Origin: Pirellulales bacterium
GTDB taxonomy: Bacteria; Planctomycetota; Planctomycetia; Pirellulales; JADZDJ01
Assembly: GCA_035656635.1 (NCBI GenBank)
Contig: DASRSD010000099.1
Location: forward strand, 2 to 64,001
Reading direction: 5' to 3'
Length of the DNA: 64,000 bases
The notes below the pieces were generated by a model that searched no databases, was not told the origin of the DNA, and saw nothing but the letters and a program-made list of their open reading frames with translations. Below, piece after piece: positions 1 through 58,773 of the stretch; positions within the stretch are counted from its first letter, which is position 1; each line of letters starts with the position of its first letter. Both the position numbers and the translations under genes were made by a program.

Positions 1-126
1 CACCCGGATGTTTTCCAGTTCCGATCACGACATTCACTGCCTGCACGATATTCTGGGCGATATTCCCACGGCAGGCTTTTTTGCCCAGGGAGAAATTGGG
101 CCCGTCGGCCAGCAGAACTTTTTGCA
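1..126 (-). CDS. hypothetical protein, 5' end only (continues past left window edge)
   Basis: ATG at 126-124 (minus) opens [42 protein letters not shown] with no stop before position 1; family not recognised. Confidence 0.3.
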
Positions 127-206
127 TGGCTTCACCGCCAGCGTGGCCCTGTTTGACGGCTAGGATAGAATGCAGAGTTGACTCTCTTTGCGGCGCGAGT
201 CTGACT

Positions 207-734
207 ATGCCGGCCACCAGCCAAATTCTGGAACAAAATTTCTTCGCTCGGCCGGCACTGGTCGTGGCTCGGGAAATGCTGGGCAAGCACCTCGTTCGCC
301 GTTGGCGAAACCGCGAGCAAGCGGTGATGATTCACGAAGTGGAAGCTTACGTTGGCCCGCACGATTTAGCCTGCCACGGCCGTTTTGGCCGCACGCCGCG
401 CACGGAGGTGATGTTTGGTCCGGCCGGGCATTGGTACGTTTACTTGTGCTACGGCATGCACTGGATGCTGAACGTAGTGACCGACGGAGAAGATTGGCCC
501 GCGGCCGTGTTGTTTCGCGGCGCGGGAGATTTCACCGGCCCGGGAAAATTGACGAAAGCGCTGCGCATCGATCGGCGGTTGAACGCACTGGCGGCCCAAG
601 AAGAAGCCGGGCTATGGCTGGAAAATCGCGGCCCCAAGGTGCGGCGTTCGCAAATTGCCCTCACGCCCCGCATCGGCGTCGATTACGCGGGCATTTGGAT
701 GCACAAGCCATACCGATTTGTGCTAAAGCCGTAG
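207..734 (+). CDS. DNA-3-methyladenine glycosylase (Mpg/AAG family)
   Basis: Internal ATG at 207 of ORF 81..734; blocks FFARPALVVAREMLGKHLV, EVEAYVGPHDLACHG, GRTPRTEVMFGPAGHWYVYLCYGMHWMLNVV match the Mpg family pattern. Confidence 0.85.
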   Translation: MPATSQILEQNFFARPALVVAREMLGKHLVRRWRNREQAVMIHEVEAYVGPHDLACHGRFGRTPRTEVMFGPAGHWYVYLCYGMHWMLNVVTDGEDWPAAVLFRGAGDFTGPGKLTKALRIDRRLNALAAQEEAGLWLENRGPKVRRSQIALTPRIGVDYAGIWMHKPYRFVLKP

Positions 735-4050: not shown

Positions 4051-4767
4051 TCATTCGATTCGAAAAGTGCGCGGCAGAATTTGCCATTGCTCTGTGTGGC
4101 TGCCGTAGGCCAGCGTGCGCTCGGCGTACATTTGCACGACGGTCGACTTGCTCTCGCCGATTTGTGGACTGCGAATTCGAAGTCGGACGAGCACTTCGTC
4201 GCGGAGATCATCGCCGCCAATGTAAGTCGTGGAAAGGGGCTCAATTTTTGATTCTGCGCCGGCCGCCAGCAGTTGTTTGACGGGCTCCAGCTTTAAAAAT
4301 TCGTCGTATGGCTTCTTGGCGTCGGCTGATTTATCTTTCGGCTCCGTCTGTCCGCCTTGGACGACTGTGCGTTTGGCCGCCGGCAGAGTGAATTGAAAAG
4401 CGGCCAGGGGTTCGTTTTGCACAAGCAGTTCCATAAATTTTTCGGTGAAGTGCGTTGCGCGGGCTTCCAGCATATATTGCCTGCTGAGGGTGCGCACCGG
4501 GCCGGCCGCGCCAAAAAATACCGCCAAGAGCAAACCCAACAGCGCCAAGTGCCAGCCCGAAAGTTGCCGATCGGACGCGGTGATGCGCTGCATGGCGACA
4601 ATGGAAATTACGCCGGCCAGGATGGGAATGAACCACAAAATGGGTCCAATAATGGCCGCGGCCGACAGCAAGCCGAATAAAACGGCGGCCAAAGCCCAAC
4701 CGCTGATGCGGCCATACTCTATGATGTCGCGGTCCGCGGAACTTAACGGGGCGCTGGGCTGAGACAT
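4051..4767 (-). CDS. hypothetical membrane protein (two N-terminal TM hairpin segments)
   Basis: ORF 4051..4773; ATG at 4767; hydrophobic stretches WALAAVLFGLLSAAAIIGPILWFIPILAGVISIVA and LALLGLLLAVFFGAAG; last gene of the pilT operon. Confidence 0.55.
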   Translation of the reverse strand: MSQPSAPLSSADRDIIEYGRISGWALAAVLFGLLSAAAIIGPILWFIPILAGVISIVAMQRITASDRQLSGWHLALLGLLLAVFFGAAGPVRTLSRQYMLEARATHFTEKFMELLVQNEPLAAFQFTLPAAKRTVVQGGQTEPKDKSADAKKPYDEFLKLEPVKQLLAAGAESKIEPLSTTYIGGDDLRDEVLVRLRIRSPQIGESKSTVVQMYAERTLAYGSHTEQWQILPRTFRIE

Positions 4768-4776
4768 AACCAAAAG

Positions 4777-5388
4777 TTACGATCCGACGTAAATGCTCGT
4801 TGTCTTTTCAAACTCTTTCCGCCGCTGACCATATCTTAGAATGAAATCGCCGTTGGGATCAAACACGTGGGCATTGGGATCGCCCGGCGGTGGAGTGCGA
4901 GACAAAGCGCCGCCATTGCTCAACTGGTGCATGAAGGCCAGCCAATTTCGATCGGGCGCCAGCCCAAAAAACATGCGAGTTTCCGGCCGTTCTTGAAAAC
5001 CAAGGAAATTCCGCTCCAGCGGCGCCAGGTGCATGGTAAACAACATAAATTGCACCATGAGCCACCCCAGAGCGACGGCAAATACCACGCCCCCGATGAT
5101 ATCGACCATCTTTTTGAAGCGCATTCGGTGGCGCGATAGCAAATCGGTGGCCACGCGGAAAATGGTAAAGAACACGCAGAAGCAAATCCAGACGGCGATA
5201 AAATCGCAGAAGTAACCAATGCTATGCCACATTCCTTCCAGCCAATTGGCCACCGGCTCGAACAAGTTTGTGGCCAATACCGCCGCCATCAGCGCATTGC
5301 AAAACAGCAGGCCAGCGCCCCACAGGCCTTCGTTGAATACGAAAGCGACACACACGGCGAACACAACCGCAATGATTAAATTCAGCAT
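4777..5388 (-). CDS. CvpA-like integral membrane protein
   Basis: 203 aa, four hydrophobic helices, N-terminus MLNLIIAVVFAVCVAFVFNEGLWG resembles CvpA (colicin V production) family; weak assignment. Confidence 0.5.
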   Translation of the reverse strand: MLNLIIAVVFAVCVAFVFNEGLWGAGLLFCNALMAAVLATNLFEPVANWLEGMWHSIGYFCDFIAVWICFCVFFTIFRVATDLLSRHRMRFKKMVDIIGGVVFAVALGWLMVQFMLFTMHLAPLERNFLGFQERPETRMFFGLAPDRNWLAFMHQLSNGGALSRTPPPGDPNAHVFDPNGDFILRYGQRRKEFEKTTSIYVGS

Positions 5389-5421
5389 GGCAAGCTATTC
5401 ATTGAGCATCAAATTCTCAAA

Positions 5422-7239
5422 TTATCCTTTGAGCACTCGTTGCAATTCCAAAAGCGACGTGACCCCTTTGACCACTAATACCAGGCCCTCTTCCTGAAAC
5501 GTCTTCATGCCGCCGCGGCGAGCAGCCGCACGCACTAAATCGAGCTTGGGGCTTTTCATCAACACTTCGCGCACACCGTCCTCAATCACCAACAGCTCGA
5601 ACAGTCCGGTGCGTCCTTTATAACCAATGCCCTGACATTCCGGGCAAGGCTTCTTGGGATCGGCCTGCGACGGGGTGCGATATAACTGCTGCACCTTGCC
5701 GGGCGGGATGCCAAACTGCTGCAGAATTTCGGCTGGAGCGGGATAGGCTTCCTTGCAGGCATCGCACAGCTTGCGGATTAATCGCTCGCAAATGACGCCG
5801 CTGACCGCGTTCACAAAATCCTTGGGCGGCACCTTCAATAGCAACACGCGCAACAATGTCTCCGGCGCATCTTTGGAGCGCAGGCCAGTCAAAATCAGCC
5901 GATCTTCCGCGACCTGCTCGCACAGCAGCTTAGCGGTGGCGGCATCGGTTAAGGTGCGCACAACCAAAGCATTCGGGTAGGTGCGGATGATTTTTTCCAA
6001 GGCTGGCACCGGCGTTTCGCCGGCTGCGGCATTGTAGGTGGTAACCTGCAAGTTTTCGATTTCGTGCTCGCGGTTGTTGACATCTTCCACCGCGGCAAAA
6101 TCGCGCACATACCGATCACAAGCCTTCAGCGCCGCATCGAACAAATTGCTCAAGCCGCCGTTGGGCATCGAGCTAAAAATCACAAACCCCGCACTTCGGC
6201 CTAGCAATTCCTTCAACTGCTCCTGCGTTTTGGCGCGGAGGCCCAATTCTTCCAGCGAATGAACCGGGGCCTTCGTAGGATGGAATTGGGCAACCACCCG
6301 CTCGCCGTTTTCCACGCCCACACTTTGCACTTTGCAGCCATAATGAGTTTGCTTGTAATTCGCCGACAAGGTTCCCGATTGGCGCTTCGCGCGTTCGTTG
6401 GCATCCAATCCGGCCATGGTTTTCAATACGGCGACAACCATGTTGCCGGATTCACGATCGCGGGGATCGACGTTGTGCCAGACGCCGTCAATTTGAAAGC
6501 GCACCGCGACGTTGGCAGCGGTGCATTCCAGCATGATGGCGTCGCCGCGTCGGTCGAGCATGTCTGCGACCATGTCTTTGGTCAGCACGTAGCCGGGCGA
6601 GCGCCGGGCGAGCATTAAATTGGCTTCGCCATCTCGGCCGCCACCGGAAGTGGCTTTAAATTTGACCGGCGCTCCTTTTTCATGATCTTGCTGCCGTTCC
6701 GTGGCAACCTTCACGCCAAATTTTCCGGCGACTTCGGCAAATACCTGCCGCAAGTGATCGATGGTCATTACCCGTTGGTGCGATTCTACCGCCTTGTTGC
6801 GAACAACAATGTAAACGCCCACGGGAACCAAATACGTCACGGCCATCAACGGGTAAGCTACCTCGAACCACGGCAATAGCCACAGGAGCAAAAAGGTAGC
6901 GATAAACGGACCGAACATGACGCCGTTCCAAATCATGTAGCTCATGTTCAGCCGCAAGCAATCCTGGCTAACCCAGTCGGCGGTTTTCACCCACAGCAAA
7001 AACAAAATCCACACCAAGAAGAATCGCGACAAGCTGAGGTAATACCCGTGGCCGCGCCCGATATCCGGTTCTTTGCCAAATTGTGTGACCGGTGGCAGCG
7101 GATAGGTCGGCCAGCCATTGGTTTCCTCCGACTGGGCAACTCCCGGAGTACTCGGCGGCTGAGCGGGCGCGCGCGAGGGCTGCCACAACAGAATGGCCCC
7201 GGCCAGGCATACAAAAATCAGCGCTGCCCAGCGTGACAT
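5422..7239 (-). CDS. GspE/PilB-type secretion ATPase homologue, membrane-anchored, Walker A degenerate (probable pseudo-ATPase)
   Basis: C-terminal two thirds follow GspE/PilB layout incl. CDAC...CPECQGIGYKGRTGLFELL tetracysteine; Walker A position reads FSSMPNGGLSN (6145-6180); N-terminus has signal-like segment plus 3 TM helices; ATG 7239-7237 overlaps pilT stop (TGATG). Confidence 0.75.
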   Translation of the reverse strand: MSRWAALIFVCLAGAILLWQPSRAPAQPPSTPGVAQSEETNGWPTYPLPPVTQFGKEPDIGRGHGYYLSLSRFFLVWILFLLWVKTADWVSQDCLRLNMSYMIWNGVMFGPFIATFLLLWLLPWFEVAYPLMAVTYLVPVGVYIVVRNKAVESHQRVMTIDHLRQVFAEVAGKFGVKVATERQQDHEKGAPVKFKATSGGGRDGEANLMLARRSPGYVLTKDMVADMLDRRGDAIMLECTAANVAVRFQIDGVWHNVDPRDRESGNMVVAVLKTMAGLDANERAKRQSGTLSANYKQTHYGCKVQSVGVENGERVVAQFHPTKAPVHSLEELGLRAKTQEQLKELLGRSAGFVIFSSMPNGGLSNLFDAALKACDRYVRDFAAVEDVNNREHEIENLQVTTYNAAAGETPVPALEKIIRTYPNALVVRTLTDAATAKLLCEQVAEDRLILTGLRSKDAPETLLRVLLLKVPPKDFVNAVSGVICERLIRKLCDACKEAYPAPAEILQQFGIPPGKVQQLYRTPSQADPKKPCPECQGIGYKGRTGLFELLVIEDGVREVLMKSPKLDLVRAAARRGGMKTFQEEGLVLVVKGVTSLLELQRVLKG

Positions 7240-8414
7240 CAAATCATTCCCGAGGACTTGACTTCGATGCCCTTGAGGGCCATTTTCAACGCCTCCACAT
7301 TGGGCGCCACTTCCAACGCCACGGTGCGGTCGATCAATTCGCGATCGACCAATTCTTTCAGACTCATGGTGAAGTCTTGCATGCCGTCCTTGGCAGAAAT
7401 TCGAATGAGGTCCGCCAATTTTTCGTCGCGCTCTTCCAAAATTAGTTTGCGCGCCATGGCGTTGAACGTCATAATTTCGACCGTCGGCACGCGGCCCACG
7501 CCTTCCTTGATGGAAGGCAACAATTTTTGAGCCACGATGCCGCGCATGTTGAAGGCAATGGCGCTGCGCAAAGCGGTGTGCATTTCGCGGGGGAATAAGT
7601 CCAAAATACGGCTGATGGTGCTGGGGGCACTGGAGGCGTGAATGGTGCCGAACACCAAGTGCCCCGTTTCGGCTGCGTGAATAGCCGTCATAAACGTTTC
7701 CTGATCGCGCATTTCGCCCACCAGCATGACGTCGGGATCCTCACGCACGGCGTGCTTCATGCCGATCGAAAAATCCTTTACGTCGGTGCCGACTTCGCGC
7801 TGGTTGATCAGGCACTTGTCTTCCGTGAACGTGAATTCAATGGGGTCTTCCAGCGTGAGAATATGCTTGCGGTAATGATGATTGATGTAGTTCAGCATCG
7901 ACGCAATTGTCGTGCTTTTGCCAGAGCCTGTGACTCCGGCCAGCAGAACCATGCCCTGGTCGAATTTGCACAAATCTTCCATGACGGGGGGCAAGTTGAG
8001 TCCCTCGAAATCGGGAATCCAGTTGTTCACGCGGCGGGCCACCATGCCGACGTGCCCGAGCTGCTGCAGCACGTTTACGCGGAACCGCCACTTGGTGCCA
8101 TCCACATCGACCACGTGGGCAAAGTCCGAGCCGCCGGTTTCCTCAAAAATCTTTTGCCGCCGCTCATCGAACATGCCGAAGATGAGGCGGACCATTTCTT
8201 CATCTTCAATGGGGCCGCGGCTCAAAGGGCGCAGCGAACCCTTGACGCGCACATACGGGGGGCGCCCCACCTTTAAATGCAAATCGCTCCCCTCGAGTTT
8301 GACCAGGGCGCGAAACAGCTTGTCGATTTCCAACTCCTCGTGCTTGACCAAAAACCGATCGACGGGGCTCTTCGCTTTGAAGTGATGATTGTTATTGTTT
8401 TCGCCGTGAGACAT
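7239..8414 (-). CDS. pilT: type IV pilus retraction ATPase PilT
   Basis: 391 aa; GVTGSGKSTT Walker A, LVGEMRD Walker B region, GHLVFGTIHA His box; PilT-length hexameric ATPase. Confidence 0.9.
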   Translation of the reverse strand: MSHGENNNNHHFKAKSPVDRFLVKHEELEIDKLFRALVKLEGSDLHLKVGRPPYVRVKGSLRPLSRGPIEDEEMVRLIFGMFDERRQKIFEETGGSDFAHVVDVDGTKWRFRVNVLQQLGHVGMVARRVNNWIPDFEGLNLPPVMEDLCKFDQGMVLLAGVTGSGKSTTIASMLNYINHHYRKHILTLEDPIEFTFTEDKCLINQREVGTDVKDFSIGMKHAVREDPDVMLVGEMRDQETFMTAIHAAETGHLVFGTIHASSAPSTISRILDLFPREMHTALRSAIAFNMRGIVAQKLLPSIKEGVGRVPTVEIMTFNAMARKLILEERDEKLADLIRISAKDGMQDFTMSLKELVDRELIDRTVALEVAPNVEALKMALKGIEVKSSGMI

Positions 8415-8481
8415 GGCTGTGTGAATGTCGAAGGACTATTTGATGATTGTCTAAATTGCAAATTCCGGACGTTTTAATTCG

Positions 8482-9249
8482 TTATAACCGCACTGGTATT
8501 CCGCGCTGCCGCATGGCTTCTTTGGCCTGCCGGATGGTGTACTGGCCGAAGTGGAAAATGCCGGCCGCCAAAGCGGCGTCGGCGTGACCCACGAGAATTG
8601 CTTCCGCCAGATGTTCCGGATGCCCCGCTCCGCCGCTGGCCACCACGGGAATGGCAACGGCCTGGCTGACGGCAGCGGTCATTTCTAAATCATAACCATT
8701 TTGCGTGCCGTCCGCATCCATGCAGGTGAGCACAATTTCGCCAGCCCCCAGCCGCTCCACCTCCTCCGCCCAGGGGACCGCTTGTTTACCCGTCGGCACT
8801 CGGCCGCCGTTGATGTGCACTTCCCACGATTCTGACCCGTTTTTCTGGGTCCGCTTGGGGTCAATATTCACCACAATGCATTGGCTGCCAAATTTACGGG
8901 CCGCCTCACGCACAAACTCCGGATTCTTGCAGGCTGCTGAATTAATCGAGACCTTATCGCATCCGGCGTTCAACAAAGCACGAATATCATCCAACGTGCG
9001 GATTCCACCCCCCACAGTCAGCGGCATGAACACCACTTCGGCGGTGCGCTTCACCACGTCGATCATCGTGGCCCGACCCTCGTGGCTGGCCGTGATGTCG
9101 AGAAACACCAATTCATCGGCCCCCTCGGCCTCGTATCGGGCAGCCACTTCCACTGGATCGCCGGCATCGCGCAAGTGGAGGAACTTGGTGCCTTTTACCA
9201 CTCGCCCGCGGTCGACATCTAAACACGGTATGACGCGCTTGGCAAGCAT
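8482..9249 (-). CDS. hisF: imidazole glycerol phosphate synthase cyclase subunit HisF
   Basis: [20 protein letters not shown]...[11 protein letters not shown]...PLTVGGGIR...VASGGAG full-length HisF pattern. Confidence 0.95.
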
Positions 9250-12709: not shown

Positions 12710-14887
12710 TTAAGCTAAACGAACTCCGGAAAATTTTTCGACCACCACGCGGCAATCGGGAAGCGAGCCCAGAAACGTTTTTCCATACGGCTTGGTGCGC
12801 AGCCGCGGATCGAGGATCACCACCATTCCCGTGTCGGTTTTCGTCCGAATGAGCCGGCCGAAGCCTTGCTTCAATTTGAGCACGGCCTCCGGCAGTTGAT
12901 AATCGACAAACGGATTGCCCCCGGCCGAGCGGATGGCCTCCAGCCGCGCTTCCAACAGCGGACGGTCGGGCACGCTGAAGGGGAGCTTGGTGATGATGAC
13001 GTTTTGCAGCGCGTCTCCGGGCACGTCCACCCCTTGCCAGAAACTATCGGTGCCCAACAGCACGCTGCGGGGATTTTTTTTGAACTGTGCCAGCAATTGG
13101 CTGCGTGGCGCGCCGTCGGCTTGTGATAACAGCGACAAATTATGCTCGGCTAGCCAGGGCGTGAGGGCGGCGGCCGTGCGACGAAGCATTTCATAGCTGG
13201 TGAACAGCACAAACGCATGGCCATCGGTGCGGGACACGTAGCGGCGAATCATTTCCTCGCACGCCTGCTGATACGCCTGCGCATCGCTGGGATCGGGCAG
13301 GCCCTCGGGCAGAATCAATTGCACCTGTCGTTGGTAATCGAAGGGACTGCCCAAGCGAAGGCAGGCCGATTGGGTGAGGCCAATGCGGGTTTTGAAGTAA
13401 TCGAAAGCGGGATCGGGACCGCCGACATTCTTTCCAGGCTTAGTGCTCCGCGCCGCAGACTCCGCGTCGCGGCTAAACGGCTTTGATCCACTGACCGTAA
13501 GCGTGGCGCTGGTCATAATGACGCTGGGCACCACGTCGAATAGTTGTTCCCGCAGGGCGGGGCCAACATCGATGGGTGCTGCGCACAGCGCGAACCGTTT
13601 GTGGCCGCGGCGCGATTTGGTCCGCTCGATCCAATAGACGGCCTCGGGCAAATCTTGCTTGATCCAGGTTTCGATTTCGGCGGCGATGCCCCGCAAACGC
13701 TCGGCGACGGAATTGAAATCGAAGCGCTCTTTGTCATCCTTGAATTTTTCGCCGTGCTGGCGGACCAGACGCGAAAGTTTATCGAGCGCCGGGCTGAGCA
13801 AGTTGGGCACGATGTCGGGCTTGGTTACGCGGCCGTTGGCGCCGTCGTCGAGCCACTGGTCAACGTCGTGGAAGAAATCGTCGGCCCGTACTCGGCAGCG
13901 TTCTACTTCCTGCTGGGCGTCGCCCAATTTGTAATGCACCAGCAGGCCGCGATTACTGCGGTCGTTGTAAAGCTTGTTGAGCGTGTACTCAATGGCTCTG
14001 GAGGAAATGCCCAGGCCTAAATGATCGCCGGCCACGCCTTCGACGGTGTGGGCTTCGTCGAGAATGGCGACATCGTAATTGGGCAAAATACTGGCGCCCG
14101 CGCGGCGAAGAGCCAGATCGCTGAAAAATAGGGCGTGATTGACGACCAAAATTTGTGCGTGGCTGGCGCGGCGACGGGCTTGGTAATAAAAGCAATCGGC
14201 ATAGGTCGGGCAGTTGCGGCCCATGCAGTTGCCGCTGTCGCTGGTAATTTCGTCCCAGACACTGTCGATGGGGCGGAAGGAAAGATCGGCCAGCGAGCCA
14301 TCGGGAGATTGTTGCGACCAGCGGCCGAGTTCGCCCAGTTGCTCCAGTTCTTCATCGACCAGGAACAAATTCCGGGCCCGATCTTGCGCCGCGTTCAGTC
14401 GCCGCCGACTGAGATAATTGTGCCGGCCTTTCACCAGCACCGCCGTGAATTCCTGCGGCATGACGGAGCGGAGCAGAGGAATATCTTTTTGGACAAGCTG
14501 CTCCTGTAGCGCAATGGTATGCGTGGAAACCACAATGCGGCGGATGGGACGCGGTTGGCTGCCGTCCGGTGCGCTCGCTCCGCTGCGCGGACTCCGCGTC
14601 GCGGCTAAACGAGGAGAACCGGCGGTTGAATCGGCATGACGGGCATCGGGTTCTTCGTCTTCGTCATTCGTGGGCGGCGGTTCAGCGGTGACAGCGAGAA
14701 TGGCCGGTACCAAATACGCAAAGCTTTTGCCGACGCCAGTGCCGGCTTCGACCATGAGATGCCGGCGACCTTCGATCGCCGCGGCCACAGCCTGCGCCAT
14801 TTCCAATTGTTGGGGCCGCTGTTCGTAACCGGTTAGCCGCGCCGCAATGCGCCCCTGCGGACCGAGAATTTCAACAGGATCGATCAT
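12710..14887 (-). CDS. dinG: ATP-dependent DNA helicase, DinG/Rad3 family
   Basis: ATG at 14887 ([12 protein letters not shown]); [16 protein letters not shown] Walker [14 protein letters not shown] box, Cys cluster [13 protein letters not shown]-terminal [13 protein letters not shown] and KQGFGRLIR motifs. Confidence 0.85.
13445..13479 (+). repeat. REP-like element copy inside dinG (read as PFSRDAES on coding strand)
   Basis: gctccgcgccgcaGACTCCGCGTCGCGGCTAAACG; the 22-nt core is identical to 14590-14611. Confidence 0.85.
14577..14611 (+). repeat. REP-like element copy inside dinG (read as RLAATRSP on coding strand)
   Basis: gctccgctgcgcgGACTCCGCGTCGCGGCTAAACG; 32/35 identical to 13445-13479, different reading frame. 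Confidence 0.85.
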
Positions 14888-14891
14888 GTTG

Positions 14892-14975
14892 AATGACCAA
14901 TGACCAAACCTCAATGACCAAAATGCCTTGCTTCCACATTGGTCATTGGTGCTTGGTTATTGGTGATTTTGATTT
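14892..14975. repeat. two inverted arrays of heptanucleotide repeats (AATGACC)n / (CATTGGT)n
   Basis: AATGACC AATGACC AAACCTC AATGACC at 14892-14919 and CATTGGT CATTGGT GCTTGGT TATTGGT at 14937-14964; 12-bp perfect complementarity 14896-14907 / 14939-14950. Confidence 0.85.
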
Positions 14976-21964: not shown

Positions 21965-23071
21965 ATGGCACACGATGTTACGTTAATCATGGGTGATGGC
22001 ACCGGGCCGGAACTGGCCGAAGCGGCCCGCAAGTGCATCGACGCCACGGGCGTCAAAATCAATTGGGACGTGCAAGAAGCGGGCGTCGACGTGATGGCCC
22101 GCACCGGCACGCCGCTGCCGGAAGCCACGATGGAAAGCGTCAAGCGGACCAAGTGTGCGCTGAAGGCCCCCATCACCACGCCGGTGGGCACGGGCTTTCG
22201 TAGCATCAACGTGTATTTGCGGCAGGCGCTGGGCTTATACGCCTGCGTGCGGCCCTGCAAGCAATACAAAGGCGTGCGCAGTTTTTTCGAAAGCGTGCCA
22301 GTCGATTTGGTCATTGTCCGCGAAAACACCGAAGACCTGTATGCCGGCGTCGAATTTGAAAAAGGCAAGTCGGAAACCGCCGATCTGATTAAGTTCATCA
22401 ACGAAAAATCGACCGGCAACAAAATTAAAACCGGACCGCAAGAAACGGGCGTTTCCATCAAGCCGATCAGCATTTCCGGCACCGAGCGAATTGTGAAGTA
22501 TGCGTTTGAATACGCCCGCAAGTATGGCCGCAAGAAGGTGACCAGCGTTCACAAAGCCAACATCATGAAGTACAGCGACGGGCTGTGGCTGGAGGTGTCG
22601 CGGCAGGTAGCGGCCAAGTATCCGGACATCGAATTTGAAGACCGGATTGTCGACAACATGTGCATGCAGTTGGTGCAAAAGCCGGAATTGTACGACGTGC
22701 TGGTGCTGCCGAACTTATACGGCGACGTGCTCAGCGATTTGTGCGCCGGGCTGGTCGGCGGTTTGGGCGTGGCGCCAGGAGCGAACATCGGCCCGGATGG
22801 CGCTGTGTTCGAAGCCACGCATGGCAGCGCGCCCAAGTACAAAGGCAAAAACAAAGTGAATCCGACGGCCGTGATTCTGTCGGGCATGCTGATGCTGGAA
22901 CACTTGGGCGAAATCGATGCCGGCAAGCGCCTGGAAAAAGCCGTGGCCGACGTCATCGTCGAAGGCAAAAGCGTCACGTACGACTTGAAGCCGAACCGGG
23001 ATGATCCTACCGCCGTGGGCACGCGCGAAATGGCGGATGCGATTGTGGCGAAATTAAAAGCTGGCCGATAG
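21965..23071 (+). CDS. icd: isocitrate dehydrogenase (isocitrate/isopropylmalate dehydrogenase family, NAD-IDH-like)
   Basis: [57 protein letters not shown]. Confidence 0.75.
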
Positions 23072-39115: not shown

Positions 39116-42100
39116 TTAGCGTTTGTCGTTGTATGACTTTAGCGCCGGGCGACTCGTGATGTTGCCGCCAGGCGGCTGATTCAAGTACGTGAACAAGTTG
39201 GCGATATCATCCAACGTGAGCGTATTCAGCAAACCCTCGGGCATGACAGAAATTTTGCACGGCAAGACTTGATCAATATCGCCGGCAGCAATGGTGGCTT
39301 TCTGACCGTTGGATTGCAACACCACCAACGAGCCATCGGCCTGCTTCGCCGCCAAGCCGGTAATACTGCGGCCGTCTGTCGTGAGTACTGTTTTGCTTGC
39401 GTACTGATCGGAAATTACCAGCGATGGGAATAAAATCGATTCGAGAATTTCTTTCTTTTGGAAACGGCGGCTGACGGTGGTGAGATCCGGCCCTACGCCA
39501 TCGCCACGATCGCCAAAGCGGTGGCAGTTGATGCACTGCGATTTGGCAAACACTTTGGCGCCCAATTCGACATTGCCGTGCGCGCCTTCGGTGCCGGTCA
39601 GGAACGTGTACAGCTCTTCGTAGGTCCATTTGTTTTCGGCAGATTCAACCGGTAGCTTGGCTTCCGGCTCGTTGGGATATGTTTCGGCAAACCATTTCTG
39701 CCAGGCGGCCAGCGCCGTCTCGGCCTTGTCTTCTGGTGTACTCAGCTGTGTGCCGGTCCAACGTTCCAGCACCTTCACCGCATTTAAGCCGCCGTTTTCG
39801 CCTAATTTCAAGCCCCGCAAAATCACTTGCCGATACGGCTCTGGGTTATCAGGAGTTTGTTCGATGTGCGCCAGAGTAATTAGCACTTGCTGAGCGAATG
39901 CTCCTTCCACCACCGGCAACGATTGCACCAGCAGCGGCCAGTTTTCGGCGCTTGGAGTTTGCGTGATGGCCATGGCAATTTGACCGCGCCGCTCGGGGAA
40001 CTTGTCGAATGTCTCGTGCAAGTAAGTGCTGGCCTGCGGATCGTGCGAACGGCCCAGCACTGCCACAATTCCAATACCCAATTTATGGGCTGCGTCTCCA
40101 TCCATGACCGCAATTTGTTTATCGAGGGCAATAATTTGAGCGATGGTTTCTGGTGGCACGTCTTCAGGCAATTTCGCCAACAATGCCAATGCGGAAGCAG
40201 GCCATTTGGCGCCGTCGGCCAATACCAGGGCCCGTTCTTCCGGTGTGAAGTCGACGAAAAAATCGCGGGAAACGCTATCGATGTAACCATCGAAGCTATG
40301 TCCGCCTGAGAGCGCGCGAGCGCTTTCATAATACTTCAGCAGTTCCAGCTTTTGCCCTGTGCTCCAGCCGTGTAAGAACCTGGCGTACAACGCCACTTGC
40401 AATTTGTCGGCCGAGGGGCTGTCGGCAGCCAGTTGTTCCAGCATCCGCTGAGCGGCTGATTTACCTTGCAAAAACACGACCAACCGCACTAGTTCGCGGT
40501 TCAATTGAGCGTTGCGGGTGGGATACTCCTTAGCGATTTTCTCCGACAGCTCCGGCACATCCGATGGCTGCAGATTGCCCCGGGCCAGTGATAATTGCAT
40601 GACTCGCAGTATGTCGAGAAAATCGGGATCATTGACGAACCCGTCCATAACGGTTTCGCAGCGACGTAAAATGGCCAAGCAATTATCGTGAGTGGGATCC
40701 ATCACCAACATGGCCCGCGCGCCTTGCACGAACGTGCGGGTTTTATCGGTACTGAGAATCGCCGCACGATATTCATCTGTGGGCAAGGTTTCCAGCAGCC
40801 GAGTGGCAGCATAGGCAATGTAACGGTGGGTGCTGCTCAACAGCGGAGCTAGTTCTTCATACTTCGGCTTTTGTCCAGCCCGAACCATCGATTCACATGC
40901 CACTCGTTGCACCACCGGATCGCGATCGCGCAGCAATTGCGCCAGCTTGACGGCTGTATCGGCATCGGGATGCAAACCCATCAAGCTGGCTACTTTGGCG
41001 CGAATTGCGGCATCCGGGTCGCTTGCCAAGCGAGACAGCTGCGCCCCGGTAGGAAACGGGCCGAATAAATGCATGAGATCCAACGCCCGGCAGCGGTCTA
41101 AACTGGCCCCCAACGGATTCTCGGCAAGGGTATTGAGTTGCTCGTCCCACGTTTTGCCTAACTGCTGCTTAAGCAGGGCGATTTTTTGTCGGGCGAAGGC
41201 GCTATTCAGTTGCGGCTGATGCAAGGCTTGATCTATGCCCTGGCCTAAAGCTACCGCATCAGCCGGCACCTTGCCGCGCCAAACAATGCGGTACACGCCT
41301 CCTTCCGTGCCGCGGCCGCCGGTGCAGAAATACAGCCCGCCATCAGGGCCCACATCCAAGCCTGTAACATTCAGCGGCTTGCCGGCGGCGAAGGTTTCCA
41401 TTTCGGTTTGATACGTGCCATCTTTGGATTTCGGGTAAATCGCCAAAATTCGCCCGCGTGACCAATCTCCTATAAACAACGCATCATGATAACGCCGCGG
41501 GAACATCACGTGATTGTAAACTACTACGCCAGTCGGCGATCCGCGCCCCGTATCGGTCATCGTGGGCAGGCTATCAAAGTTGTAATCGGGCCACACGCTC
41601 CATCCGCTGCGCGAGCCGAACTCGCCGCCGGGAGTTACGTGCAAGCTCCGAGTGGGACGATACCAGGGAAGGCCCTCGTCCCATTCCATGTCTGAATCGG
41701 CCGTGAACAATTCGCCGGCGCGATTAAATGCCAAGCTGTAGCAATTGCGAAATCCGCCGGCAAACAATTCGGCAAAGCTGCCGTTAACATCGGTGCGTAC
41801 TACCGTGCCCCCCGGCGCCTTAATGCCGGCAGCATAACCATGCGGATCTTCGTATTTAGGAGTTATTAAATCGCCTTCGTAATAATCGTGCAGCGGGCTG
41901 GTCGATGCCGGCTGCTTGTCAACTTGAGTGTGGTTGCCAAGGATAACATACAGCAGACCGTCCGGCCCAAGCGTGACGCCATGCGGCCCATGCTCAACCG
42001 AATCGCCCGTGAACTTCAGCAGCGTGTCGCACTTGGCAGCGTGGCGGTCGCCATCGGTATCAGTAAGCCGATAAAGCCCTAACCCATCGGGGCCTTTCCC

Positions 42101-43030
42101 CACGGCGAACACTTGCCCGTTCAGCGCCAAAATTCCTTGGCAATTGGTAACTTGATCAGAAAAGACTTCCGGCTTGTCGAACTTGCCTTCGTGGTTAGGA
42201 TCGCGGAATAAGAGAATTCCGGAACCTTCCTTGGAGGCTAAGATTTCGCCGAACTCGTCGAAGGCCAGGGTTAAGAGCGAGCCGGTATCTTCGGGCGCTA
42301 AAACCGTTTCTACGCGAAACTCGGGCAACGTTTCAAAACGACCGGCAGGAGCGCCCCCCGCCATTTGTACATCGTCCAACCACGGTACCGCGGTTCCCAA
42401 GGGTCCTACCACGCGGGCCGGAAGCCATTGGGTATCGTTGTAGGAATGCTTGGACCATTGTGGAAATTCCTGCAAGCTGGTGCGCCAGGTATCGTCAGTG
42501 TTATAAGCCACATAAGTGCCGCCGACATCTTTGACCAACACACGCGCCACCAAGCCGGCGCTGCCCTCAGCTTTTACCGTGGCTTTTACGGCAACCGTAT
42601 TCCGGCCAGCGGAAAGATATTTGGTAATATCGTGCGACTTCATTACTCGCCAATTGTCTCCCTCTCCTGCCGGACGACCGTTTACATACAGTTCGTAGGC
42701 ATTGTCGCAGGAAATTTGCACCTCGCCGCTTTCGGGCTGACCCAACGGAAACGACTTGCGAAAGTAGCATACGCCGGGCGGAATTTTTTTCTCGACGGTT
42801 TGCGCCGGCGACCAAATCCATTTCATCTCTTGTTGCTGTTTATCTGGCTTTAAGTCAGTTTTGGCATTAGGGTTGGCGTCGACTTTGGGATCGGCTTTGC
42901 TTTGTGCGCCAGCTGGCTGCGCGGCCTGAATGAGCAGCAGGCCTATACCCAATGCCAAAGCCAGAAGAATGCCTTCAGACAACATTCGGAGTCTGTTTAC
43001 AAAGTTCTTCGGTGCATTAGCTAATTGCAT
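39116..43030 (-). CDS. giant membrane-bound-dehydrogenase-domain / HEAT-repeat / c-type haem-binding protein (PVC-type)
   Basis: ATG at 43030 then signal/TM; beta-propeller-like segment, long HEAT-like helical region, C-terminal CINCHRFGDRGDGVGPDL cytochrome c motif. Confidence 0.7.
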   Translation of the reverse strand: MQLANAPKNFVNRLRMLSEGILLALALGIGLLLIQAAQPAGAQSKADPKVDANPNAKTDLKPDKQQQEMKWIWSPAQTVEKKIPPGVCYFRKSFPLGQPESGEVQISCDNAYELYVNGRPAGEGDNWRVMKSHDITKYLSAGRNTVAVKATVKAEGSAGLVARVLVKDVGGTYVAYNTDDTWRTSLQEFPQWSKHSYNDTQWLPARVVGPLGTAVPWLDDVQMAGGAPAGRFETLPEFRVETVLAPEDTGSLLTLAFDEFGEILASKEGSGILLFRDPNHEGKFDKPEVFSDQVTNCQGILALNGQVFAVGKGPDGLGLYRLTDTDGDRHAAKCDTLLKFTGDSVEHGPHGVTLGPDGLLYVILGNHTQVDKQPASTSPLHDYYEGDLITPKYEDPHGYAAGIKAPGGTVVRTDVNGSFAELFAGGFRNCYSLAFNRAGELFTADSDMEWDEGLPWYRPTRSLHVTPGGEFGSRSGWSVWPDYNFDSLPTMTDTGRGSPTGVVVYNHVMFPRRYHDALFIGDWSRGRILAIYPKSKDGTYQTEMETFAAGKPLNVTGLDVGPDGGLYFCTGGRGTEGGVYRIVWRGKVPADAVALGQGIDQALHQPQLNSAFARQKIALLKQQLGKTWDEQLNTLAENPLGASLDRCRALDLMHLFGPFPTGAQLSRLASDPDAAIRAKVASLMGLHPDADTAVKLAQLLRDRDPVVQRVACESMVRAGQKPKYEELAPLLSSTHRYIAYAATRLLETLPTDEYRAAILSTDKTRTFVQGARAMLVMDPTHDNCLAILRRCETVMDGFVNDPDFLDILRVMQLSLARGNLQPSDVPELSEKIAKEYPTRNAQLNRELVRLVVFLQGKSAAQRMLEQLAADSPSADKLQVALYARFLHGWSTGQKLELLKYYESARALSGGHSFDGYIDSVSRDFFVDFTPEERALVLADGAKWPASALALLAKLPEDVPPETIAQIIALDKQIAVMDGDAAHKLGIGIVAVLGRSHDPQASTYLHETFDKFPERRGQIAMAITQTPSAENWPLLVQSLPVVEGAFAQQVLITLAHIEQTPDNPEPYRQVILRGLKLGENGGLNAVKVLERWTGTQLSTPEDKAETALAAWQKWFAETYPNEPEAKLPVESAENKWTYEELYTFLTGTEGAHGNVELGAKVFAKSQCINCHRFGDRGDGVGPDLTTVSRRFQKKEILESILFPSLVISDQYASKTVLTTDGRSITGLAAKQADGSLVVLQSNGQKATIAAGDIDQVLPCKISVMPEGLLNTLTLDDIANLFTYLNQPPGGNITSRPALKSYNDKR

Positions 43031-43370
43031 AACAATTCCCCGTCCGCCTAAATGGAGAGATTCAATAGCTTTGCGAAATGATGACGATGTTCGTGCAGAA
43101 TCCCCGTCGGGAATGAACTTGCGTGGGGAAACGCACCGCGCTTTCTGTTGGGCTGCACTGCTGCCACCCAAGCGGCGGAACATTAACGGGTTTTGGCAGC
43201 CCAAGCAACACGGATTCTGCCGCTAGCACACCGCCCAGTAGTCTGCTTGACCGCCTCCCAAGCCACGGTTTAGCATGCGGTTAAGCACTGGACGTAAAAT
43301 TGGCTTCGGTGCATAGTGGGCGGTTTATGTGGCCCTAGCTGGCATTGCCCAATCTGGAAGAGAACAACCC

Positions 43371-51986: not shown

Positions 51987-52640
51987 TTACTCATCATCGC
52001 TCGGATGTTTGTTCGTCCACGCTTCGTTCAATTTCAAAATGGCCGCATGCATCCGGCTTTTCACGGTGCCGACGGGAATATCCAGCACCTCGGCGGCCTC
52101 GCGATACTTCATTCCTTGGTAATACACCAATAACACGGCTTCGCGCAACGCTTCGGGCAACTCGGCAATGGCTTGTTGCACCCATTGGCGGCGCTCATCT
52201 GTTTCTAAGTTATCGACTGCCAGCGGCTCTTTGCTGGTGAGCAAATCGAGCAGCGAACCGACATCGTCTTGCGTATCGTGGTGATGACCGCGGCGATCCA
52301 AGCTGACCATTTTGTGCCGCCGGTTGCGACGCTGGGCATCAATCGCCTGGTTGGTGGCGATGGTGTACAGCCACGGACGCACTTTGCGTCCCTCTTCAAA
52401 CTGGTCGGCCTTCAAATACAACTGCAGGAACGTCGCTTGGAACACGTCTTCTGCCATCGTGGCATCGCTCAGATAGCGACGCAAATAGCTGTAAAGTTCG
52501 CGTTCGTAGCGTTGCACCAGCAACTCAAAAGCCCGACGACCCCCACGCAACCGATGCTCCATTAACAGCTCTTCGTCGGTTTTCCGAGCCAAAGCTTCGG
52601 GAGTGTCGGTTTGCGATTGTATGTCGATGGCACTACTCAT
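51987..52640 (-). CDS. ECF-type RNA polymerase sigma-70 factor
   Basis: ATG at 52640; region 2 FELLVQRYERELYSYLRRYL...DVFQATFLQLY...RPWLYTIATNQAIDAQRR; region 4 LPEALREAVLLVYYQGMKYREAAEVLDIPVGTVKSRMH. Confidence 0.9.
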   Translation of the reverse strand: MSSAIDIQSQTDTPEALARKTDEELLMEHRLRGGRRAFELLVQRYERELYSYLRRYLSDATMAEDVFQATFLQLYLKADQFEEGRKVRPWLYTIATNQAIDAQRRNRRHKMVSLDRRGHHHDTQDDVGSLLDLLTSKEPLAVDNLETDERRQWVQQAIAELPEALREAVLLVYYQGMKYREAAEVLDIPVGTVKSRMHAAILKLNEAWTNKHPSDDE

Positions 52641-52730
52641 CTTTATACGCCCCGGCTGGGAAGCGGTTCGCGGTGGGGGCCCATTGCCGGGGCAAAGTTT
52701 CGCCCAAATTCCCCCTGGCAAAGCACGAGC

Positions 52731-52759
52731 ATTATACATGGCATTTTTCCTTCTGTCCG
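52731..52759 (-). promoter_or_regulatory. candidate sigma-70-type promoter for the ECF sigma operon
   Basis: Minus strand CGGACA-N17-TATAAT, about 90 nt upstream of ATG 52640. Confidence 0.3.
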
Positions 52760-53368
52760 ACTCATTGCCGGCGAGCGCACACGATGAGAAGAATGAAGGA
52801 AAATGACTGCGCGTCGCAGGGGTCGAACGGGTTCGCACCCTACATTCGCAAGTGCCGTGCCTGCCAACCATTTGCAACCATTCACCGCAGATATCGGCGG
52901 CAGGCTGCAAAACCCTCTCGCCACAAACCCTTAGCGAACAGGCGCTTTCGTCACCATATTGGAACATAGCCCATTTCGGGCGACCGCGAACAACCGGCGG
53001 GCAAATCGCTGGAAACCCGCTTTTTCTCGGCTCATGCCGAAACGGCAGTCTCGAATTGAGACGCCCTTGGCAATTGCGGCCATTCGCACGGACGAAAGTT
53101 GCCGCCGGCTTTTGTCCCCGATTATTATTTTCCGGACAGAACTGGAATGTTTTGTCGCAGGCTCGCTGCTGCCGGCAGGGAAAATTCGCGGATTTGCCAA
53201 GTGTTGTGCGTGACATAATCAGGCCAGTTTGCGTCGCAAAAGATGTATTGTTGGTGAATTGTTGCTCGTCAGGTCAGTGATCGGTGGTCGGTAAAAATTA
53301 GCCCCGGCTCTGCCGGGGGGCCGCAGCGGAAAACGGTCGCATCATCCCGCCGCATGGCACAAATTTTA

Positions 53369-57396: not shown

Positions 57397-57599
57397 AAGT
57401 GATTTTTTTGAAACTGCTGGCGCTAAGCAGTTGGCGGTAGGCGGCCGCCGGCTGGCTCGGTTGAAGCGCTGCGAATGAATTGGTCCACGGCTGTGGCTGT
57501 TGGGCATCTCTAGGCAATTGGCATGCGCGAGGCGCCGCTGCTTGTGAGCGCCGGGGCGTGCCGCTAAAATTGCGACTTGCGCGGCGGTGATTTTTTCAC

Positions 57600-57634
57600 G
57601 CTCCGCTTGCGCATCGCGGCTAAACCGCAAGCGG
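57600..57634 (+). repeat. third copy of the dinG-type element, as a 9-bp hairpin
   Basis: gctCCGCTTGCGcatcgcggctaaacCGCAAGCGG; shares GCTCCGC and TCGCGGCTAAAC with the 13445 and 14577 copies. Confidence 0.7.
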
Positions 57635-57696
57635 ATAGATGCCAACGTGTCGAATCGTCTCTTGATTCTCGACCCTCAACCCTGAGCCCTGCTTTC

Positions 57697-58773
57697 ATGT
57701 CCACTCTGAAATTGGCCGTAATTCCCGGCGACGGCACCGGGCCGGAAGTGACCGCCGAAGCCCTCAAAGTGCTGAACGCCGTGGCCCCGCTGGAAAATTT
57801 TAAGTACGAAACCACGCCTTTCGATTGGGGCTGCGAGCGATATTTGAAAACCAAGGAAACGCTGCCGGCCGGCGGCGCCGACGAGCTGCGAAAATTCAAC
57901 GCCGTGTTTTTGGGCGCCGTGGGCCATCCCGACGTGGCGCCGGGCATTATCGAAAAAGGGCTGCTGTTGGCGCTGCGATTCGAGCTGGATCAGTATATTA
58001 ACTTGCGGCCGGTGCAATTGTTCCCCGGCGTGGAAACTCCGCTGGCGGGCAAGGGACCGAAGGACATCGATTTTGTCGTCGTCCGCGAGAACACGGAAGA
58101 TTTGTATTGCGGCGTGGGGGGATTTCTCAAAAAAAACACGCCCGACGAAGTGGCCACGCAAGCCGCCGTGTATACCCGCAAGGGTTGCGAGCGCTGCATT
58201 CGCTGGGCGTTTGAGTACACCCGCAAGCGGAATAATCCCAAGGGAAAAATGCTGACGCTGGTAGCCAAAACCAACGTGCTGACCTTCGGGCACGATTTAT
58301 GGTGGCGGGCCTTTCAGGCCGTGGCGAAAGATTACCCCGACGTGAAGGCCGATTACAACCACGTGGATGCCTGCTGCATGTGGATGGTGAAATCGCCGGA
58401 ATATTACGACGTAATTGTCACCACGAACATGTTCGGCGACATCATCACGGATTTGGGGGCGATGATTCAGGGCGGCCTGGGCGTGGCGGCCGGCGGGAAT
58501 ATCAATCCCGATCCGGGCGGCGTGAGCATGTACGAGCCGATGGGAGGCAGCGCGCCCAAGTACACCGGGCAGAACGTCATCAACCCCATCGCCGCCGTGG
58601 GCGCGATGAGCATGCTTTTGGAACATTCAGGCCAACCGAAAGCCGCGGCCCGGGTGATGAAGGCCATCAAGCAAGTGACGGGCACGAAAATGAAAAGCCA
58701 GGCCGCCGGCAAAATGGGCTACAGCACCACGCAGGTCGGCGACTTGGTGTGCGAGGCGATGGTGAAGGGGTAG
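57697..58773 (+). CDS. isocitrate/isopropylmalate dehydrogenase family enzyme (3-isopropylmalate or tartrate dehydrogenase-like)
   Basis: ATG at 57697; [61 protein letters not shown]. Confidence 0.75.
   Translation: MSTLKLAVIPGDGTGPEVTAEALKVLNAVAPLENFKYETTPFDWGCERYLKTKETLPAGGADELRKFNAVFLGAVGHPDVAPGIIEKGLLLALRFELDQYINLRPVQLFPGVETPLAGKGPKDIDFVVVRENTEDLYCGVGGFLKKNTPDEVATQAAVYTRKGCERCIRWAFEYTRKRNNPKGKMLTLVAKTNVLTFGHDLWWRAFQAVAKDYPDVKADYNHVDACCMWMVKSPEYYDVIVTTNMFGDIITDLGAMIQGGLGVAAGGNINPDPGGVSMYEPMGGSAPKYTGQNVINPIAAVGAMSMLLEHSGQPKAAARVMKAIKQVTGTKMKSQAAGKMGYSTTQVGDLVCEAMVKG

Follow-up and report, generated by a model that had tools for sequence, protein, structure and literature searches.

This study concerns a block of four genes in a 64,000-nucleotide (nt) stretch of DNA from a Pirellulales bacterium (GenBank assembly GCA_035656635.1, contig DASRSD010000099.1, positions 2 to 64,001 of the forward strand), hereafter called the window. 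The block occupies positions 4051–8414 and comprises four open reading frames (ORFs), all on the minus strand. From upstream to downstream, these encode PilT, a pseudo-ATPase derived from the PilB/GspE ATPases, a CvpA-family protein, and a further membrane protein, which we call orf4 (Table 1). The close packing of the genes, which had been pointed out in an earlier reading of the DNA alone (the sequence-only reading), can be read directly from the letters. The pilT stop codon and the start codon of the pseudo-ATPase gene share one nucleotide; the junction reads ATT TGATG TCA, in which the A of the pilT TGA is the first base of the ATG at 7239–7237. The pseudo-ATPase gene is separated from the CvpA-like gene by 33 nt (5389–5421), and the latter is separated from orf4 by 9 nt (4768–4776). 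Our results are best explained by an inner-membrane module that is conserved across the order Pirellulales and has at its core PilT and the pseudo-ATPase, two proteins probably made together.

Table 1. Coordinates of the genes and sequence features of the block and of the adjacent hisF gene (window positions)
Feature	Position	Residues	Strand	Description
pilT	7239..8414		(-)	391 aa; canonical PilT/PilU-family hexameric ATPase with every catalytic motif intact
TGATG junction	7237..7241		(-)	1-nt overlap of the pilT TGA and the pseudo-ATPase ATG
Pseudo-ATPase gene	5422..7239		(-)	605 aa from ATG; membrane-anchored, PilB/GspE-derived
Signal-peptide-like hydrophobic helix	7183..7239	1-19	(-)	Hydropathy; AlphaFold2 helix 4-18
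Three transmembrane helices	6790..7032	70-96, 101-121, 125-150	(-)	Hydropathy and AlphaFold2
Degenerate Walker A, SSMPNGGLS	6148..6174	356-364	(-)	PilF GPTGSGKS becomes SMPNGGLS; Leu363 at the Lys position
Walker B equivalent, ALVVRTLTD	5944..5970	424-432	(-)	PilF IIMVGEIRD; Gly replaced by Arg428, catalytic Glu by Thr429
His-box equivalent, LILTGLRSKDAPE	5860..5898		(-)	PilF ATLHTNDA becomes TGLRSKDA; His replaced by Arg454
Tetracysteine (Zn) motif	5635..5766		(-)	Retained; C492/C495 ... C532/C535
CvpA-like gene	4777..5388		(-)	203 codons; Colicin_V family, inner-membrane protein with four transmembrane helices and a C-terminal tail of ~80 aa
orf4	4051..4767		(-)	238 codons from ATG; membrane protein with a putative DUF4190-type transmembrane hairpin, a third transmembrane helix, and a putative C-terminal NTF2-like domain
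hisF	8482..9249		(-)	TIGR00735 at 383 bits (cutoff 294.6); 67 nt upstream of pilT

Judged by its motifs and alignments, the product of the first gene is an ordinary, fully competent PilT. It scores 391.7 bits against TIGR01420 (curated cutoff 319.1), and a phmmer search of the PDB matched it to Aquifex PilT (2ewv) at 8e-82. The alignment runs end to end with the PilT structures of Aquifex, Pseudomonas, Thermus, and Geobacter. In the alignment with 2ewv, the Walker A motif GVTGSGKST, by which the protein had been recognized from the sequence, is intact, as are the Asp box (LTLEDPIEF), the Walker B motif with the catalytic Glu (DVMLVGEMRD), and the His box (GHLVFGTIHAS). Furthermore, the catalytic motifs are kept in 69 orthologues, and the orthologues at 80 related loci are 71–89% identical.

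The second protein retains the N2D–CTD core fold of the PilB/GspE ATPases. PF00437 (T2SSE) matches its residues 220–602 at 1e-43. Additionally, an AlphaFold2 model calculated with 66 relatives in the input has a mean predicted local distance difference test (pLDDT) score of 83, and a Foldseek search with this model returned PilF, PilB, and EpsE at the top (E 1e-33 to 1e-35, target TM-score up to 0.89). The GspE–GspL complex 4pht is also among its structure and sequence matches. In a residue-by-residue comparison with PilF 5oiu (alignment numbering +1, TTG-start form), the tetracysteine motif and GRTGLFELL are retained, which bears out the earlier assignment of this 605-residue protein to the GspE/PilB homologues. 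The same alignment upholds the claim that the Walker A Lys has been replaced by Leu and that the Walker B equivalent has degenerated, and it reveals a comparable change in the His box (Table 1). Both Arg-finger motifs are altered as well, with PQDGR becoming RQSGT and DLRLS becoming GCKVQ, so that T290 and K303 are the equivalents in the window copy.

As reported by McCallum et al., the Walker A and Walker B residues, the catalytic Glu, two Arg fingers, and the Asp-box Glu are completely conserved in PilT-like ATPases (PMC5424180). From this set, the second protein keeps only the Asp-box Glu, and it also keeps the tetracysteine; this pattern points to descent from the extension ATPases (PilB/GspE), and canonical ATP binding or hydrolysis is not expected. 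The protein thus appears to be a paralogue from the PilB/GspE extension-ATPase clade that has lost the residues for ATP binding and hydrolysis, and it should neither bind nor hydrolyze ATP in the canonical manner. Its scores against the GspE and PilB equivalog models, 169.2 bits for TIGR02533 (cutoff 630.25) and 162.5 bits for TIGR02538 (cutoff 675.65), fall below both trusted cutoffs, at about one quarter of their values. Because several defining features of the functional GspE/PilB family were tested and are absent, the pseudo-ATPase lies outside that family, as a pseudo-enzyme offshoot that bears a new membrane domain and has PilT as its constant partner. The database labels in use for its relatives are "ATPase, T2SS/T4P/T4SS family", "TadA", and "hypothetical"; the first two are misleading, since the protein is predicted to be unable to hydrolyze ATP. 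NCBIfam holds no model for genes 2–4, none of the curated families in Pfam and NCBIfam covers the pseudo-ATPase with its membrane domain, and we found no description in the literature of a transmembrane (TM)-anchored or degenerate PilB/GspE in Planctomycetota.

The usual soluble cytosolic N1D/MshEN domain (PF05157) is replaced in the pseudo-ATPase by the signal-like helix, three TM helices, and a linker. Hydropathy and the AlphaFold2 model agree on these helices, as had been proposed from the letters alone. The signal-like helix is followed, in the family consensus, by a conserved AxA-Q site and then by a disordered Pro-rich stretch with a conserved WP motif; residues 21–66 have low confidence in the model. 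The TM region bears near-invariant W83, D93, W104, and R147–N148, and a conserved juxtamembrane linker that matches no Pfam family follows it. A Pfam search of the N-terminal 215 residues at E<=10 returned nothing meaningful. The predicted topology puts the ATPase-like part on the cytoplasmic side, regardless of signal cleavage. The possibility that the TM region belongs to a separate ORF had also been raised; the gene is one continuous ORF, and its relatives have the same length and architecture.

Moreover, when a profile restricted to the membrane domain was run against 1.84 billion representative sequences, there were 804 hits, including 483 with E<=1e-10. Architecture was compared in the best 150 of the 804. 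The full-length sequences among them measure ~570–760 aa and carry the domain near the N-terminus, always together with the pseudo-ATPase. This uniform architecture in the best 150 hits indicates that the membrane domain travels only with this pseudo-ATPase.

The family is widespread within one group of bacteria. A word-indexed search found 610 relatives of the pseudo-ATPase at E<=1e-10, and in a scan that took a single genome for each GTDB species, at least 565 species-level genomes encoded such loci. The named carriers, whose range is taken from the source names, are all of Pirellulales type (Pirellulales, Thermoguttaceae, Lacipirellulaceae, Botrimarina, and Thermostilla). With a profile built from the most divergent members, the clade itself scores at least 409 bits, while the next sequence, a canonical GspE/PilB ATPase of MshEN+T2SSE architecture, reaches 197 bits, a gap that marks the clade as discrete. 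In the divergent member P0213 (locus L084, 8001–11185), which has 688 aa and 32% identity, a long acidic insert lies in the periplasmic N-terminal segment. For the 773-aa member P0017, both PF00437 and PF01789 (PsbP) are recorded, the result of either a fusion at the N-terminus or a wrongly called start that joins an upstream gene to it.

Conservation was assessed in 172 full-length sequences, namely, 171 relatives and the window copy. At the Walker A Lys position, Leu occurs in 142 sequences, Val in 17, Gln, Met, and Phe in 3 each, and Ile and Tyr in 2 each, and Lys occurs in none (0/172). Furthermore, a motif scan found no canonical GxxGxGK[ST] anywhere in the 171 full-length relatives, which rules out an intact P-loop elsewhere in the protein, a concern that the sequence-only reading had raised about itself. 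The degenerate P-loop keeps G362 in 172/172 and P359 in 165/172, the Walker B Gly position is occupied by R428 in 147/172, and the four Cys are nearly always kept (170–171 of the 172 for each). Similarly, the membrane domain keeps W83 (170/172), D93 (171/172), W104 (168/172), and N148 (168/172). The near-invariance of P359, G362, R428, the four Cys, and the TM residues indicates selection for a non-catalytic role. Collectively, the alignment suggests that the catalytic loss is ancient and fixed and that purifying selection acts for another role.

The same alignment bears on whether the pseudo-ATPase still binds or hydrolyzes nucleotide at a non-canonical site, for instance with Arg428 standing in for the Walker A Lys and Asp/Glu429 serving as the base in most members. 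The conservation of G362, P359, and R428 fits this explanation, as do the Asp-box Glu, kept in 153/172, and the acidic residue found at position 429, that of the catalytic Glu, in 127/172 (Asp in 99 and Glu in 28, with Asn in 15 and Thr in 13 others). However, the Walker A Lys is absent throughout, both Arg-finger positions are variable across the family, position 454 in the His box is Arg in 106 and His in only 35 of the 172, and residue 429 of the window copy is Thr. In addition, no known PilT-like ATPase functions without these residues (PMC5424180). We therefore regard a surviving non-canonical enzyme as very improbable.

A decaying pseudogene, or an annotation artefact in which two ORFs were fused, is a different explanation for the loss of the catalytic motifs, and that loss is all that speaks for it. 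The 605-codon ORF is uninterrupted, the architecture is the same across the family, dozens of residues are invariant, the AlphaFold2 model is confident, and relatives are carried by at least 565 species. This explanation is ruled out, with a probability that we consider negligible.

The third gene passes the Pfam threshold of PF02674 (Colicin_V) at 7e-11, with 42.7 bits against a gathering cutoff of 29.3, and hydropathy shows four hydrophobic segments, in agreement with its earlier description as a CvpA-like protein with four TM helices. For orf4, the earlier label "DUF4190-like" is the weakest point of the sequence-only reading and draws its support from orthologues: the orthologues (47–52% identity, and those at syntenic loci) bear PF13828 (DUF4190), whereas the window protein has no Pfam match even at E<=10. 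In its AlphaFold2 model, a TM hairpin is followed by a third helix leading out of the membrane and by an alpha-plus-beta domain, with a pLDDT of ~90 for residues 100–238. The best Foldseek matches of this C-terminal domain (residues ~100–238) in the PDB are all NTF2-like and weak (E ~1e-2); they comprise the PBP5 N-terminal domain, the RsgI9 NTF2 domain, and the CaMKII hub, which are membrane-proximal or oligomerizing. The database entry identical to orf4 is annotated "hypothetical protein VFE46_09080". To our knowledge, the CvpA and DUF4190 families have no established molecular function and no known link to PilT-like ATPases.

Gene order around the pseudo-ATPase was compared at 80 species-level loci, with each count limited to the loci that have enough flanking sequence. 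The pilT gene is the immediate upstream neighbor of the pseudo-ATPase gene in 71/71 loci, and cvpA is its immediate downstream neighbor in 76/78. The orf4 family is present in 59/73 loci, and hisF is found upstream in 53/59. The strong conservation over these genomes answers the question of synteny that the sequence-only reading had left for a wider comparison. Moreover, in 47 of 75 species, the pilT stop codon overlaps an in-frame start of the pseudo-ATPase gene (T[GA]ATG-type overlap available), an arrangement through which the two genes could be translationally coupled. When the flanking ORFs from the 80 genomes were clustered all against all, no further conserved neighbor emerged, and no type IV pilus (T4P) or type II secretion system (T2SS) gene is among the conserved neighbors, which agrees with the earlier view that the locus is unlike those of standard pili or T2SSs.

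To the gene order can be added the covariation of evolutionary rates. In a mirror-tree comparison of 55 species, the distances of PilT and the pseudo-ATPase correlate with r = 0.62, and the partial correlation given hisF is 0.52 (permutation p = 0.001). The partial correlation between the pseudo-ATPase and CvpA is 0.61, while the control comparison of hisF with the pseudo-ATPase, conditioned on PilT, yields 0.08. This covariation of PilT, the pseudo-ATPase, and CvpA beyond the hisF control weakly supports a joint module.

Several observations weigh against the explanation of the block as a joint module. The hisF gene keeps its place nearly as well as the genes of the module, and conserved order alone is thus no proof of shared function. 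The orf4 gene was undetected in 14 of the 73 loci. In at least one divergent member, that at locus L084, hisF and pilT still precede the pseudo-ATPase gene, but neither a cvpA-like nor an orf4-like gene lies downstream, where ~1.1 kb is without a convincing ORF; the absence of both genes there indicates that the core of the module is the ATPase pair. The mirror-tree signal, moreover, comes from a single control gene and from saturated distances. It might be supposed that the genes are adjacent through history or operon layout and have no joint function, with PilT serving a pilus encoded elsewhere and the three membrane proteins engaged in an unrelated task. The near-equal synteny of hisF, which is surely unrelated, is what recommends this supposition. 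Against it stand the 1-nt overlap kept in most species, the invariable PilT adjacency, the fact that PilT and the pseudo-ATPase are paralogues of one motor family, and rate covariation greater than that of the hisF control. We consider chance neighborhood improbable.

The immediate surroundings of the block are unremarkable. The 67-nt gap between hisF and pilT (8415–8481), both on the same strand, contains no terminator-like site; hisF is probably co-transcribed with the pilT block, and we claim no functional link. A convergent short-chain dehydrogenase/reductase gene closes the block, and housekeeping genes surround it. A promoter and terminator scan within the block found nothing exceeding the shuffle expectation. 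The earlier statement that the window holds no pilin, PilC-platform, or secretin gene was borne out: T2SSF/PilC, secretin, PilM/N/O, and N_methyl domains are absent among the ~40 largest ORFs of the 64-kb window, and no prepilin motif of the G[FM]TL[IV]E type occurs in its six frames. In addition, the PADLOC defense-system models assigned no membership to the four proteins, with only trivial P-loop matches for pilT and none for the other three.

Other features of the window were recorded alongside. A DinG/YoaA-type helicase is encoded a few kb upstream of the module (12710–14914) and also at the locus of a distant relative (L083, 3072–5096), which hints at a somewhat wider regional synteny. 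At 51987–53216, a sigma-70/extracytoplasmic function-type protein carries regions 2 and 4 at residues 233–396, preceded by an N-terminal extension of ~230 aa with no Pfam match. Two paralogues of the isocitrate/isopropylmalate dehydrogenase family are encoded at 21965–23071 and 57577–58773. Finally, the 1362-aa protein encoded at 39116–43204 has DUF7133 together with HEAT repeats and a GH2 sugar-binding-like segment, and it carries a cytochrome c domain at its C-terminus.

Based on these observations, the explanation that we tentatively prefer, and hold to be nearly an even bet, is that the dead paralogue forms a membrane dock or adaptor for PilT. The pseudo-ATPase would still assemble the N2D–CTD ring typical of its family, and its N-terminal helices would pin this ring at the cytoplasmic face of the inner membrane, with 18 TM helices per hexamer. 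The ring would then serve as a fixed dock or adaptor that contacts PilT and passes the ATP-driven conformational cycle of PilT to the membrane. The CvpA-like and DUF4190/NTF2-like proteins would supply accessory parts in the membrane and periplasm. Type IV pilins or pseudopilins handled by a machine encoded elsewhere are conceivable substrates, as is other membrane cargo. The regulatory or membrane-remodeling role suggested in the sequence-only reading is likewise hypothetical. That two PilT-family rings can act in series is illustrated by PilT bridging PilU to the machine (bioRxiv 10.1101/2025.10.30.685630).

Alternatively, the dead paralogue might regulate an ordinary type IVa pilus encoded elsewhere, either as a membrane-fixed decoy that takes the place of PilB at the PilC site or by sequestering and releasing PilT, and might in this way set the balance of extension and retraction. 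Its descent from an extension ATPase, as the tetracysteine shows, its co-encoding with the retraction ATPase (71/71 adjacency, 47/75 overlap), and the resemblance of the canonical PilT to a normal type IVa pilus retraction motor are all consistent with such a regulator. However, the module locus never lies beside pilB, pilC, or pilM–Q in the 80 genomes, and a dedicated, highly conserved membrane domain together with two extra membrane proteins exceeds what a decoy would need. A regulatory decoy is therefore rather unlikely in our estimation, though it deserves serious attention.

A bolder version of the dock explanation, which we rate as unlikely, is that the module is a hitherto unrecognized PilT machine independent of any pilus. 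In such a machine, the PilT hexamer would act via the membrane ring of dead PilB subunits and the CvpA-like and NTF2-domain partners to move or remodel a component of the inner membrane or periplasm. Candidate tasks might be the extraction or recycling of very abundant pilin-like proteins or a step in fiber-mediated macromolecule uptake. The players in this uptake process are still unknown (PMC12673574; PMC5394234).

The pseudo-ATPase family is a natural case of a dead extension-ATPase copy that is fixed in the membrane, has its synthesis apparently tied to that of a retraction ATPase, and is kept in at least 565 species-level genomes of one order. Few known molecular motors are as strong as the PilT-like ATPases, whose docking and coupling to the membrane platform are still debated. 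If the dead ring docks PilT, the pair would provide a simple two-protein system for motor–membrane coupling and pseudo-enzyme scaffolding, as well as a candidate for a role in the envelope biology of Planctomycetota, which is poorly understood. If the pilus-independent machine exists, it would be the first T2SSE-family pseudo-enzyme to act as the transmembrane stator or platform of an active paralogue. Since the carriers include the cultured Botrimarina colliarenosi and Thermostilla marina, the docking proposal is experimentally testable.

To place the module among known systems, we compared it with other ATPases and tethers of this kind. With the PilB/GspE/PilF extension ATPases (Thermus thermophilus PilF 5oiu/5it5, Geobacter metallireducens PilB 5tsh, and Vibrio cholerae EpsE 1p9w), the pseudo-ATPase shares the N2D and CTD fold, the tetracysteine Zn site, the Asp-box Glu, and ~25% identity. 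In contrast to them, it is without the Walker A Lys, the Walker B Gly, the catalytic Glu, the Arg fingers, and the His-box His, and a membrane region has been swapped for the cytosolic N1D/MshEN domain. The PilT–PilU tandem likewise consists of two paralogous PilT-family proteins encoded side by side, one of which depends on the other to reach the machine, and their rings are proposed to act in series (PMC6821130, PMC6762196; bioRxiv 10.1101/2025.10.30.685630). PilU, however, is a soluble and catalytically active protein of the PilT clade, whereas the partner in the present module is of the PilB/GspE clade, dead, and embedded in the membrane.

The archaellum offers a parallel for an inert ring acting as a coupler. 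FlaH forms a non-hydrolyzing P-loop ring between FlaI, an active T2SSE-family ATPase, and the membrane platform, much as is proposed here for the dead ring; in contrast to the pseudo-ATPase, FlaH is RecA/KaiC-like, binds ATP, and has no TM helices. Finally, GspL, PilM/PilN, BfpC, and TcpR tether T2SSE-family hexamers to the inner membrane. These tethers, which are bitopic and actin-like, have no relationship to the ATPase, whereas the anchor proposed for the Pirellulales module would be a dead copy of the ATPase itself.

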